The notes under the pieces: generated by a model
What the model was told of the DNA's origin: nothing
Databases searched by the model: none
What the model saw: the letters and a program-made list of their open reading frames with translations, nothing else
IMG/VR virus record: IMGVR_UViG_3300024520_000077
Location: 1-59,412 of that record
Source: a virus
Taxonomy: Duplodnaviria > Caudoviricetes
Length of the DNA: 59,412 bases
Reading direction: 5' to 3' (one strand)
Shown: piece by piece, positions 23,698-26,285 of the stretch
How positions within the stretch are numbered: position 1 is the stretch's first letter
How the letters are laid out: each line of letters starts with the position of its first letter
Made by a program: the position numbers and the translations under genes

Positions 23698-24125
23698 GGC
23701 GCCCGAAGCCCCGCGACGACGAGCCCTCGAAGGCCTGGCGCGTGCCCTGGTGGCGGACGTGCAAGGCGTGCGGTTGGCGCTTCCTCTTCGAGCACTCGTG
23801 GGCGGGGCGGTGGCATCTCGGATTCGAGGCGCCTCGGCATGGTCGAAACGTGTGGAGCCGCGGCCACGTCTGCCTCGAATGCGCGCCGACGAAGGAGGGC
23901 GCCCGGAAGTACTTTGGGGTGATCCGCCCTCGTCGTCCGGATGGGCCGCCACCTCCGCCTCCTCCTCGACCCACGGGCGGTCCGGTGCCGCCGGTCATCG
24001 CCCTGCCGCTCTCCGGCTCATGCCCCACCTGCGGATCCGGTGTCGGCGAGGTCTGCCGAAGCGCATCGGGCGACGGCATCTCGCCGTCCAGGTGTCACGC
24101 CGCAAGGGGCCGGGCGACGGCATGA
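23694..24125 (+). CDS. Cys/Pro-rich hypothetical protein (Zn-finger-like)
   Basis: Three CxxC motifs; CPTC..GEVC..H.AR; ATGA-coupled. Confidence 0.5.
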   Translation: MRRPKPRDDEPSKAWRVPWWRTCKACGWRFLFEHSWAGRWHLGFEAPRHGRNVWSRGHVCLECAPTKEGARKYFGVIRPRRPDGPPPPPPPRPTGGPVPPVIALPLSGSCPTCGSGVGEVCRSASGDGISPSRCHAARGRATA

Positions 24126-24427
24126 GACTCCCCTGGCTCCGCGTCGTCCTCGTGGTCGCCCTCGTCGCGGCATGGCTCCAGGTCGACACCTACCGCGACG
24201 AACGGGCCGAACGCGTCCACCTGCAGGTCGAGGCGGGGCTCCGGGCTGACGTCCACGGCCTCGAGGCGCAGCTCGCCGACGTCGAAGCGGCCCGTGATGA
24301 GCTTCGCCGCGAGCTCGGGATAGCCCGAGAGGAGACAGCGCGCGAGCGGGACTCTTGCTCTCAGGAGCTGAGCCACGCCGAGGCGCGCTGCCGGGCGGAG
24401 CTGGAGGCGTGCGGGGCCGGTGAATGA
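24122..24427 (+). CDS. Membrane-anchored coiled-coil protein (i-spanin-like architecture)
   Basis: N-terminal TM followed by heptad-rich helix; function is inferred only. Confidence 0.45.
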   Translation: MRLPWLRVVLVVALVAAWLQVDTYRDERAERVHLQVEAGLRADVHGLEAQLADVEAARDELRRELGIAREETARERDSCSQELSHAEARCRAELEACGAGE

Positions 24428-24467
24428 GCTGGCACTATTCAGTCTTGACGGTGGACTCCTCTCCTGA
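24420..24467 (+). pseudogene. Orphaned original 5' end of the C5 methyltransferase (VNELALF...)
   Basis: GTGAATGAGCTGGCACTATTC parallels TTGCGTGAGCTTTCCCTATTC at 24921, 501 bp downstream. Confidence 0.7.
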
Positions 24468-24473
24468 TAGGAT
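24445..24473 (+). promoter_or_regulatory. Promoter carried by the HNH cassette
   Basis: TTGACG-17-TAGGAT. Confidence 0.75.
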
Positions 24474-24505
24474 CCGAGAGTACGCCGGACTCATCGAGGT
24501 GAGAC

Positions 24506-24928
24506 ATGTTGAAGCGCAAGAATTGCGAGGAATGCTCCGCGTCGTTCGCCCCCGCGAGGAAAGAGCAGAGGTATTGTTCCAAGTCCTGCGCGAGCGTGAA
24601 GAAGGGCAAGATGCGGACGGGACAGAAGACCGGGCCAAGGAAGGGGTGGGTCTACTCCTCTTGGATAGACAGGGATGGCTACGTCATCCGATACGCTGCG
24701 CTGCATCCCTTCTGCGGTGGGCGGCGGATCATCAAGGAGCATGTGATGGTTATGGAAATCGGCATCGGGCGACGGATTTCTTCTCTGGAAGTCGTGCACC
24801 ACGAGAATGGCGACCGCCGGGACAACAGGATCGAGAATCTTCGCTTGATGACGAGATCAGAGCACTCCAAGCTTCATGGGTCGAACTGGAAGGGGAGGGG
24901 GCGGAATGCTCTCGGGCAATTTGCGTGA
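24506..24928 (+). CDS. HNH (homing-type) endonuclease with N-terminal CxxC/CSxxC Zn-finger
   Basis: EHVMVME..GR....EVVHHENGDRRDNRIENLRLMTRSEH; GAGG RBS. Confidence 0.92.
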   Translation: MLKRKNCEECSASFAPARKEQRYCSKSCASVKKGKMRTGQKTGPRKGWVYSSWIDRDGYVIRYAALHPFCGGRRIIKEHVMVMEIGIGRRISSLEVVHHENGDRRDNRIENLRLMTRSEHSKLHGSNWKGRGRNALGQFA

Positions 24929-25769
24929 GCTTTCCCTATTCCACGGCGCCGGCGGCGGCATTCTCGCGTCTCGCCTCCTCGGATGGCGTACCGTGTGCGG
25001 CGTCGAATTCGACCCCTACCGCCGGCGAGTCGTCGCCCAGCGTCAAGCCGACGGACTCCTCGACCCCTTCGACATGTGGGACGATGTCCGCACCTTCGAC
25101 GGCAAGCCCTGGCGAGGACGCGTTGACGTCGTCTCGGGCGGTTTCCCCTGCCCTGCCTTCTCCCTTGCCGGAAAGCGACTCGGAGGCGCCGACCCCCGCA
25201 ACATGTGGCCCGATACCGCTCGGGTCATTGGCGACGTACGACCACGCTACGCGTTCCTGGAGAACGTGCCAGGCCTCCTTTCTTCCGGGTATTTCGGACG
25301 AGTTCTCGGGGACCTGGCCGCGCTCGGGTACGGTGTCGTTTGGGATTGCGTCTCAGCGTCCCACGTCGGCGCCCCTCATCGGAGGGACCGGCTCTGGATC
25401 CTGGCCTACTCCGACGCGCCAAGACTCCAAGCACCGGGCAGACAACTGGAAGGCCCGGGAAGGTCGTGGCCGGAGCCTATTACTGATTCACAAGGTGGGA
25501 GAGGTCGAAGCCTTCCCGATGTGGCTCACTCCGAACAAGCAAGATGCGAAGCACCGCACGGAAGCGAAGAGCTGCCAGGGTGGCGAGAATCTCCGGACGT
25601 CTCAAGGTGGCTCCCTGAACCCGACGTGGATCGAGTGGCTGCAAGGCTTCCCTCTGGGGTGGACCGACTTGAAGCCCTTGGCGATGCCCAGGTTCCTCTC
25701 GTGGCTGCGCTGGCATTCCGACGCCTTGAAGCGGCTGCTCGACGAATAGCCCGAACGTCCCGCCCGTAG
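24906..25769 (+). CDS. C5 cytosine DNA methyltransferase (alpha polypeptide)
   Basis: LSLFHGAGG (I), GGFPC (IV), ENVPG (VI), HRRDRLWI (VIII), RLEALGDAQVP (X); GGAGG RBS at 24894. Confidence 0.92.
   Translation: MLSGNLRELSLFHGAGGGILASRLLGWRTVCGVEFDPYRRRVVAQRQADGLLDPFDMWDDVRTFDGKPWRGRVDVVSGGFPCPAFSLAGKRLGGADPRNMWPDTARVIGDVRPRYAFLENVPGLLSSGYFGRVLGDLAALGYGVVWDCVSASHVGAPHRRDRLWILAYSDAPRLQAPGRQLEGPGRSWPEPITDSQGGRGRSLPDVAHSEQARCEAPHGSEELPGWRESPDVSRWLPEPDVDRVAARLPSGVDRLEALGDAQVPLVAALAFRRLEAAARRIARTSRP
24925..25749 (+). CDS. Overlapping alternative-frame polypeptide of the C5 MTase (TRD plus motif IX-like); frame open from 24424
   Basis: WPTPT.QD.K and WLTPN.QD.K repeats; LNPTWIEWLQGFP.GWT resembles motif IX, which the alpha frame lacks. 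Confidence 0.7.
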   Translation: MSFPYSTAPAAAFSRLASSDGVPCAASNSTPTAGESSPSVKPTDSSTPSTCGTMSAPSTASPGEDALTSSRAVSPALPSPLPESDSEAPTPATCGPIPLGSLATYDHATRSWRTCQASFLPGISDEFSGTWPRSGTVSFGIASQRPTSAPLIGGTGSGSWPTPTRQDSKHRADNWKAREGRGRSLLLIHKVGEVEAFPMWLTPNKQDAKHRTEAKSCQGGENLRTSQGGSLNPTWIEWLQGFPLGWTDLKPLAMPRFLSWLRWHSDALKRLLDE

Positions 25770-25773
25770 GCGC

Positions 25774-25797
25774 AAGAAAGCCCCGGAGAGCCGGGGC
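25774..25797 (-). terminator. Intrinsic terminator
   Basis: GCCCCGG-ctct-CCGGGGC-TTTCTT; the same GGGGCTTTCTTG tail occurs near 45633 and 51386. Confidence 0.6.
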
Positions 25798-25922
25798 AGA
25801 CTTCATTGGGGGCTTGGTTCCATGACCAGGCTGTGTCTAATGGTGGCTCCTGTGCTTGTCGTTCATCTTGTGCCCGGATCCGACTCTATGGCCATCTCGG
25901 GCGGCCTCTGGGGTCGAGCTTA

Positions 25923-26285
25923 TCACGCCGAGCGGGGTGGCGGATCGTTATTGCAAAAAGGTGTGTTGCTCAGGCTCAGCACCCGCCCCAGGGCATAGAC
26001 AATCGACGGCCCGATCTCCTGCCCCTTGACGCCGGCCGAGACGCTCTGAGCGAGCAGGCAAGCCTCCTTGAGGAACGGGCCGGCAGTGAAGATCGCGTCA
26101 CACAGGGCGCCCAGGAGCTTCTCCCCGCTCTTCGAGTCCAGGATATCCCCACGGTCCACGTGGTCTCGGCCACTGCCGTCGAGCCACTCGCGGACGTATG
26201 CCGCGCCCTCGGCGTTGAGTTCGTAAGGGCCCGCGGTGTTGATGGCCGCGCAGATTCTGTCTGCGGCCTCGTCTTTCGTGTTCAT
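25923..26285 (-). CDS. Hypothetical protein
   Basis: GAGGAG RBS; ATGA coupling. Confidence 0.55.
   Translation of the reverse strand: MNTKDEAADRICAAINTAGPYELNAEGAAYVREWLDGSGRDHVDRGDILDSKSGEKLLGALCDAIFTAGPFLKEACLLAQSVSAGVKGQEIGPSIVYALGRVLSLSNTPFCNNDPPPRSA

Follow-up and report, generated by a model that had tools for sequence, protein, structure and literature searches.

The stretch of DNA studied here, called the window below, is one viral contig, 59,412 bases long (IMG/VR record IMGVR_UViG_3300024520_000077, positions 1 to 59,412; CheckV completeness 56%). In it the gene for a C5 cytosine methylase is interrupted within its first codons by a gene for an HNH endonuclease. We believe that the interruption is most probably a free-standing cassette for an HNH homing endonuclease, independent of splicing and inserted between codons 7 and 8 of the phage methylase. 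The methylase region is open in two overlapping frames, called alpha (frame 0) and frame B (the +1 frame) here, and the cassette has to be understood in relation to both.

The original start of alpha lies at 24420-24467 (this and the other features given below are on the plus strand unless stated otherwise), where it has been left stranded. Its GTG, which overlaps the end of an upstream open reading frame (ORF), is followed by 14 codons (VNELALFSLDGGLLS) and by a TGA at 24465-24467. The old-start 21-mer GTGAATGAGCTGGCACTATTC (24420-24440) reads VNELALF in frame 0, the first seven residues matching the family N-terminus (M/V/L)NELALF, and the +1 frame reads MSWHY from the ATG at 24424. A recoded copy of codons 1-7, TTGCGTGAGCTTTCCCTATTC, follows at 24921-24941, exactly 501 bp downstream of the first copy. 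The two share 15 of 21 bases, a level reached in 14 of 2000 shuffles of the following 1 kb. The 501-bp insertion (24441-24941) therefore consists of the HNH cassette together with the recoded codons 1-7, and it is delimited relative to an HNH-less allele by an empty-allele contig, by a drop in GC content (57-59% in the insert, 66-73% in the flanks) and by the same architecture elsewhere. The insertion point is after codon 7 of the methylase. An initial annotation, made from the letters of the window, had reported the old start, a pair of promoter hexamers, the HNH gene and the second copy at 501 bp, with a second methylase frame open over 24424-25749. All of these are present where it placed them, and the frame-B ORF runs for 441 codons without a stop, from the old ATG (+4 of the alpha start) through the whole cassette. 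The observation is confirmed, and the arrangement is not a product of chance.

The HNH gene (24506-24928) encodes 140 residues, an N-terminal CxxC...CSxxC zinc ribbon followed by an HNH_3 core. It scores 47.2 bits with Pfam HNH_3 (PF13392; cut-off 24.8, E 1.7e-12), and it has 19 matches in PHROG, 16 of them named HNH endonuclease, the best at E 9e-16. In five of the five cassette HNH proteins that were aligned, H98, H99, N107, N111 and H120 are invariant, as are C7, C10, C24 and C28; going by the fold, the invariant HNH residues are probably the catalytic ones. The cassette HNH proteins are 44-63% identical to that of the window or to each other. A search with the single HNH protein returned only distant, unlinked HNH genes, and the sister loci described next came from alignment-based scans and scans for the junction pattern.

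The same insertion recurs at one site. The comparison set comprised 165 methylase loci from viral and metagenome contigs, 50-91% identical to the window's, taken as the best 80 of 179 and the best 80 of 310 confirmed relatives in the two collection scans. Occupied loci were sought with a scan for a second NELALF-like start, with collection scans for the 3' junction and with an HNH-alignment search. Eleven contigs besides the window proved to be occupied (L149, L170, L171, L172, L177, L178, L179, L182, L183, L184 and L185). In 11 of the 12 contigs the insert can be measured from one copy to the other, and its length is 435, 438, 441, 468 or 501 bp, a multiple of 3 in every case. The old start of L179 has diverged, but its insert is likewise in frame. 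Frame B is open from the original ATG through the insert in 12 of 12 contigs, with insert GC down to 46%, and in L183 no stop closes it before the locus ends. Ten loci in viral contigs have an HNH with 44% identity or more to the query, and all ten carry it at the methylase site. The eleventh HNH match, L186 (39% over 49 residues), is not at that site.

The initial annotation had raised the case that no HNH-less allele exists. This is excluded, with about 130 unique relatives having an uninterrupted start against 12 occupied contigs. The HNH-less locus L150 is sister to the occupied L170, with a Shimodaira-Hasegawa-like approximate likelihood ratio (SH-aLRT) of 95. The two are identical at 24 of 24 nucleotides over the old copy and 82.7% identical over the gene body, and their upstream flanks are unrelated. 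The nearest frame-B protein, P0003 (67% identity), begins MNWHSS and has no insert. For the window itself, a contig from a public seawater metagenome, run X2, which is distinct from the probable source of the window, joins position 24440 to 24975 via 33 other letters encoding HGAGGGLLASK. This contig amounts to an uninterrupted start region, with a net loss of exactly 501 bp. Joints at 24440-24846, 24440-25657 and others were rejected as cross-matches and are not counted as empty-allele evidence; at least the first of them was traced to a phage resembling L172, its loose-end letters being equal to the L172 flank. That L172-like phage, which has its own cassette copy, was seen in runs X1 and X2 over window positions 24417-24880, so one habitat harbours an empty allele together with occupied alleles from two lineages. 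The locus with the closest methylase, L088 (91% identical), is uninformative on the junction; its contig ends at residue 17.

Decayed copies are found at the site as well. The loci L168 (5058-5199), L169 (2766-2907) and L173 (5304-5445, on a contig from a Methylotenera metagenome-assembled genome) share the same 141-bp in-frame HNH remnant, in which the N- and C-terminal ends of the HNH are kept and the middle is deleted. In L026 (3640-3670) there is only a scar, the last four HNH codons and stop (GRFA, stop), placed directly before a TTG/GTG pair with a strong Shine-Dalgarno (SD) sequence. This scar tells us that the starts carried by the cassette can be the gene's only starts.

To see what the cassette has to spare, the host gene must be considered more closely. 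Alpha matches PF00145 in its N-terminal half (E 2.8e-28) and phrog_363 over its full length (E 1e-60). Frame B matches phrog_1008 (E 2.9e-23) and has no Pfam or PDB match in profile searches. At least 1418 database proteins match frame B; nearly all are unnamed, mostly hypothetical, and gene callers report one frame or the other in this family. In the window, frame B has WPTP and LNPxWxEWLxGxPxGW motifs toward its C-terminal end. A frameshifted or broken methylase, with these motifs thrown into the other frame, was considered and rejected because the second frame is conserved family-wide. An alignment from residue 1 of 131 unique N-terminal domains shows the +1 frame to be stop-free over about 160 codons in 130 of them; the +2 frame of the same 131 domains has 2-16 stops, with a median of 8. 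Of the 123 loci in which the alpha ORF is complete, 117 have a +1 frame that ends no more than 30 codons short of the alpha stop or continues past it. Frame B starts 4 nucleotides after the alpha start. Codon 1 is ATG, GTG or TTG in 110 of the 131 unique relatives, and at bases 5-7 the gene has ATG in 110 relatives and GTG in 12, giving ATGAATGAG. The relatives' N-terminus is (M/V/L)NELALFAGAGGG, the same residues as at 24420, and its Asn codon is AAT, not AAC, in 110 of 120. The +1 product begins M-[S/T/A]-W in all loci examined, even where the alpha N-terminus differs.

The rest of the gene follows the same pattern. The alpha motif EPxVGRVAxGVAxRVDRLKAIGNGQVP and the +1 motif LNPxWVEWLMGWPxGWTDLKPL are encoded by the same 3' DNA in 69 unique loci. 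Four-fold degenerate sites of alpha are constrained (pooled entropy 1.97 bits, mean per site 1.52). The codon for Ala133 is GCC in 119 of 122 cases and that for Gly136 GGG in 137 of 147, preferences that fix conserved residues of the +1 frame. These patterns lead us to regard the nested second frame as conserved, stop-free and under selection.

A division of one C5 methylase over two frames has been described for M.EcoHK31I, which consists of alpha and beta, with beta lying wholly within alpha in another frame and carrying motif IX; the target recognition domain is assigned to alpha (PMC2836561). The family studied here is comparable at the level of architecture only. Its alpha has a PF00145 N-terminal half and a GNGQVP-type end, carrying motifs I-VIII plus X, and its frame B has a WPTP-repeat region and the motif-IX-like C-terminus LNPxWVEWLMGWPxGW. 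It differs from M.EcoHK31I, as described there, in that frame B is open over nearly the whole of alpha, from 4 nucleotides after the start, and in that the WPTP-repeat region lies in B. The single-frame C5 methylase ShiLan gp70 has PTP repeats and NPxxxxEWMMGWPAGW both in its alpha frame, and the frame-B motif matches its in-frame counterpart there weakly (9 of 21, E 0.002). As we read these motifs, they suggest that frame B is beta-like.

Several relatives vary this plan. In L049, L014, L089, L080, L019 and L157 alpha is closed after motif VIII or in the C-terminal block and frame B continues, in L049 even carrying the GNGQVP motif, so the division of labour between the frames varies in the family. 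The contig L127 has tandem methylase genes of the family at 199 and 992, each with its own NELALF start. In the cultured Mycobacterium phage Zerg (L175:1419-2132) gp69 is a C5 methylase annotated as one gene, and its +1 frame contains a frame-B homologue, 33.5% identical to the window's and open from about codon 25 to the end. The protein P0116 joins a different HNH (PF01844/PF14279, named McrA-like in its source) in the same frame to a C-terminal half of the frame-B type; such a fusion may represent a further means of housing a nuclease in the methylase gene.

How, then, would the cassette spare both frames? The insertion cuts alpha off from its start, leaving what would be a mini-ORF of 15 codons. 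Frame 0 has 8 stops over 24424-24941 (the HNH frame has 4), so alpha is unreadable from 24420. The recoded 3' copy would supply starts of its own, a TTG or ATG for alpha and a GTG for frame B. In the window these are the TTG at 24921 and the GTG at 24925, and together with the HNH stop TGA (24926-24928) they all fall within TTGCGTGA. The recoded copy always begins TTGCGTGA or ATGCGTGA, eight bases that contain the alpha start (TTG or ATG), the frame-B GTG and the HNH stop TGA; this overlap fixes the last two HNH residues as (F/Y)A. A G-rich stretch precedes the recoded copy, and the new alpha start conserved across cassette copies is the recoded copy's own TTG or ATG. With the HNH stop inside the recoded copy, alpha can restart after the HNH. 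Codons 3-7 differ between the two copies by 4-5 synonymous and 0 non-synonymous changes in L149, L170, L171, L172 and L169; in the window there are one synonymous and one non-synonymous change.

Frame B would be dealt with in another way. The multiple-of-3 length and the stop-free frame mean that ribosomes from the original B start can read through and still make B, and the product would carry 145-167 extra residues near its N-terminus. The HNH itself would in most copies be made by termination and reinitiation from the original alpha ribosome-binding site. Such a translational relay would run from the original alpha start to the mini-ORF, to the HNH and on to the recoded alpha start. The TGA of the mini-ORF overlaps the ATG of the HNH (ATGA or TGATG) in L170, L171, L172, L177/178, L182/183, L184/185 and the remnant, and L149 has a GTGA overlap at this joint. 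The window and L179 have no overlap. The window has instead an SD-like GAGGTGA (24496-24502) 3 nucleotides before the HNH ATG and a promoter-like TTGACG-17-TAGGAT with TG before the second hexamer (24445-24473); such matches number 1 observed in 2.2 kb against 0.1 in shuffles. The promoter reported by the initial annotation is thus a real sequence match in the window, but it is absent from the other cassette copies. Its proposal that the HNH 3' end supplies a ribosome-binding site and ATG for alpha fares much the same: the GGAGG (24894-24898) stands 7 nucleotides before the in-frame ATG at 24906, and an SD and start there would also be available to alpha, but this ATG is specific to the window. 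The alpha ORF (24906-25769) accordingly encodes 287 residues from ATG 24906 or 282 from the conserved TTG 24921. For the spread of the element, we suppose that the HNH would cut the empty site, that repair from an occupied allele would bring about homing, and that the recoding would protect the occupied allele.

The open frame through the insert can be compared with chance by permuting each HNH gene's own synonymous codons. The chance of a stop-free frame B is then 0.0036 for the window, 0.0006 for L149, 0.07 for L170, less than 5e-5 for L171 and 0.29 for L172; resampling with the phage's codon usage gives 0.03 for the window. Five distant free-standing HNH genes have 0, 12, 3, 4 and 7 stops in the same frame. 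The argument from the open frame is carried by the 12 of 12 result and the insert lengths, not by single permutation tests.

Taking the host gene and cassette together, we lean slightly towards a bolder picture: a full-length overlap of two genes (250-440 codons), with twin starts 4 nucleotides apart (ATGAATG) on one ribosome-binding site and both under amino-acid selection, in which the HNH cassette would form a third coding layer that borrows the alpha start, returns ribosomes to the recoded start and is transparent to B.

The nearest precedent is the ShiLan domain, where an HNH lies hidden out of frame within gp65, a mycobacteriophage methylase; it was reported by Arsenault, Gosselin and Gogarten (Genes 2025; PMC11855218). 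According to that report, which is based on actinophage methylases, the insert is 202 codons long, encodes a 195-residue HNH in another frame and is read through in the host frame; there is an imperfect 11-residue target repeat, and the distribution among close relatives is patchy (PMC11855218). The authors leave the translation of that HNH unexplained and propose leaderless initiation (PMC11855218). A tblastn search places a match to the window HNH inside ShiLan gp65, with E 3e-9 and 34.6% identity across 86% of the query; the two nucleases are thus homologous. The likeness to what is described there extends to an HNH in another frame of a phage methylase ORF, a stop-free host frame, no sign of an intron or intein, a target repeat and an apparently patchy distribution. 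The differences are just as clear. ShiLan gp65 is an N6/N4 methylase (PF01555) with the insertion reported in mid-gene, whereas our cassette sits at codons 7/8 of a C5 methylase gene whose two frames overlap. An open host frame of the ShiLan type is found for frame B in 12 of 12 contigs but not for alpha, with its 8 stops: alpha is broken and would be restarted, and only B would be read through. In contrast to the leaderless initiation proposed in that report, most copies here show stop/start coupling to the host start. The words cytosine and metagenom- are absent from the text of PMC11855218, and the sole match to coupl- there is unrelated ("coupled with"). In the literature we found no C5-methylase case and no full-length overlapping methylase frames, though the ShiLan supplements may list more out-of-frame insertions. 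We regard the element as a variant of this recently described kind, with a different methylase family, a 5'-terminal site, two frames treated differently and a visible candidate mechanism of translation.

Free-standing homing endonuclease genes of T4-like phages are also known to split genes, as mobE does in nrdA of phage Aeh1, and such split genes yield two polypeptides that reassemble. By analogy, our element would be another intron- and intein-free endonuclease inside a coding gene, with a host gene that is functional without splicing. Unlike mobE in nrdA, it interrupts its host at codon 7, brings a recoded copy that would restore the whole of alpha and leaves a second frame open for read-through.

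Other explanations must be weighed against a homing cassette. That the insert is spliced out, as a degenerate group I or group II intron or an unusual intein, we consider extremely unlikely. The site does lie in a stretch coding for a conserved motif and has a short flanking direct repeat, as with some introns. Against this, Rfam gave no intron family match over 24000-26000 at E up to 1, and the HNH ORF takes up 423 of the 501 bp, leaving 65 nucleotides before it and 13 after its stop, the latter within the recoded copy; the 8 stops in the alpha frame also speak against it. The HNH is in neither host frame, and an insert out of frame with alpha cannot be an intein. The frame that reads through is a shadow of the HNH, and by eye its junctions have no Cys/Ser start or His-Asn end, no intein profile search having been run. 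The analogous ShiLan element is likewise reported without an intron or intein signal (PMC11855218). The initial annotation had seen no room for an intron core and no intein motifs, and the Rfam result, the share of the insert filled by the ORF and the position of the insert out of frame with alpha bear it out. Its interpretation as a whole is supported by the HNH-less alleles, the recurrence at one site and the lack of any sign of splicing machinery. It is also unlikely, in our judgement, that the HNH is a working partner in a module resembling restriction-modification or directed against competitors, attacking unmethylated DNA while the methylase protects the phage, with stops and starts chained for co-expression. 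The old alpha start, the HNH and the new alpha start are indeed chained by overlapping stops and starts, the catalytic residues are kept in all five aligned proteins, and a homologous HNH in the unrelated mycobacteriophage N6/N4 methylase shows the family repeatedly with methylases. However, such a partner would not be expected to be missing from most of the unique loci, to leave dead remnants and scars beside an intact methylase, or to have a history that disagrees with that of the methylase, and a start that is duplicated and recoded marks an insertion and not an operon.

The main alternative to mobility is repeated loss from one old insertion, inherited vertically, in which case the HNH may no longer move and the open frame and the insert lengths would reflect purifying selection on the host gene. 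We think this very unlikely. A precise loss between direct copies is easily imagined, and the remnants show that loss is ongoing. The tree that bears on this is a quick maximum-likelihood tree of 132 alpha N-domains (from residue 3 or before to residue 158 or beyond; exact duplicates left out). In it the five HNH-bearing rows amount to 4 changes and are no more clustered than shuffled labels (277 of 500). Occupied alleles are found far apart on the tree, with HNH-less alleles as their close sisters. The HNH and alpha distances also disagree: L149 and L170 share 44% in the HNH and 76% in alpha, and L170 and L171 share 61% and 71%. Flanks of 2 kb on each side of the homologous site share nothing at E 1e-5. 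The keeping of catalytic residues in five HNH genes at 44-63% identity argues for continued selection on the nuclease. Our reading of these patterns suggests that the element is active or recently active in homing.

It is important to realize that several points weigh against a homing cassette that spares both frames. Deep support in the tree is weak, and its starred branches allow a single origin followed by losses. The empty allele in X2 is one contig, at depth 3.45 and with 30 letters on the shorter side, and given its 85% likeness it may come from a related phage instead of the window phage. The comparison of flanks is limited by their shortness (L149 has 120 nucleotides upstream). In the permutation test L170 and L172 are not significant, and one GC-rich control is also stop-free. 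The mini-ORF and the HNH are 39 nucleotides apart in the window, which makes the coupling model inapplicable there. The recoded copy keeps the frame-B GTG, part of the only pair of starts in L026, so production of B might not depend on read-through, and the open frame might have some other role. No public RNA runs are listed with the window stretch.

Around the methylase, the upstream ORF (24122-24427) encodes 101 residues, a hydrophobic N-terminus followed by a charged helical region. It has no PHROG match and no relatives in the viral contigs. Since its TGA stop shares an ATGA with the frame-B start, frame B may be coupled to this upstream ORF. A GC-rich hairpin just past the methylase (25780-25797) is terminator-like on the minus strand. 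The phage collection holds no close relative of the whole region, the best DNA matches covering at most 13%.

In the usual view, a homing endonuclease gene needs an intron, an intein or an intergenic site if it is to spare its host gene. To these three the ShiLan report of 2025 added another way, a seat out of frame with the host frame reading through. The present work would extend this way to a second, unrelated methylase family in uncultured aquatic phages, with the same HNH family using the same trick, and to a host with two frames, one restarted and the other read through. The loci offer a concrete candidate for the mechanism of translation, stop/start coupling to the host's own start, and they form a series that spans the empty site, the active copy, the 141-bp remnant and the scar. 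A by-product is a very large and mostly unannotated family of overlapping-frame methylases, with the frame-B proteins numbered above. If the two-gene overlap is true, it would rank with the longest overlaps of same-strand genes in phages, and if the third coding layer is true, it would give a worked answer to the question of how hidden out-of-frame homing endonucleases are translated.

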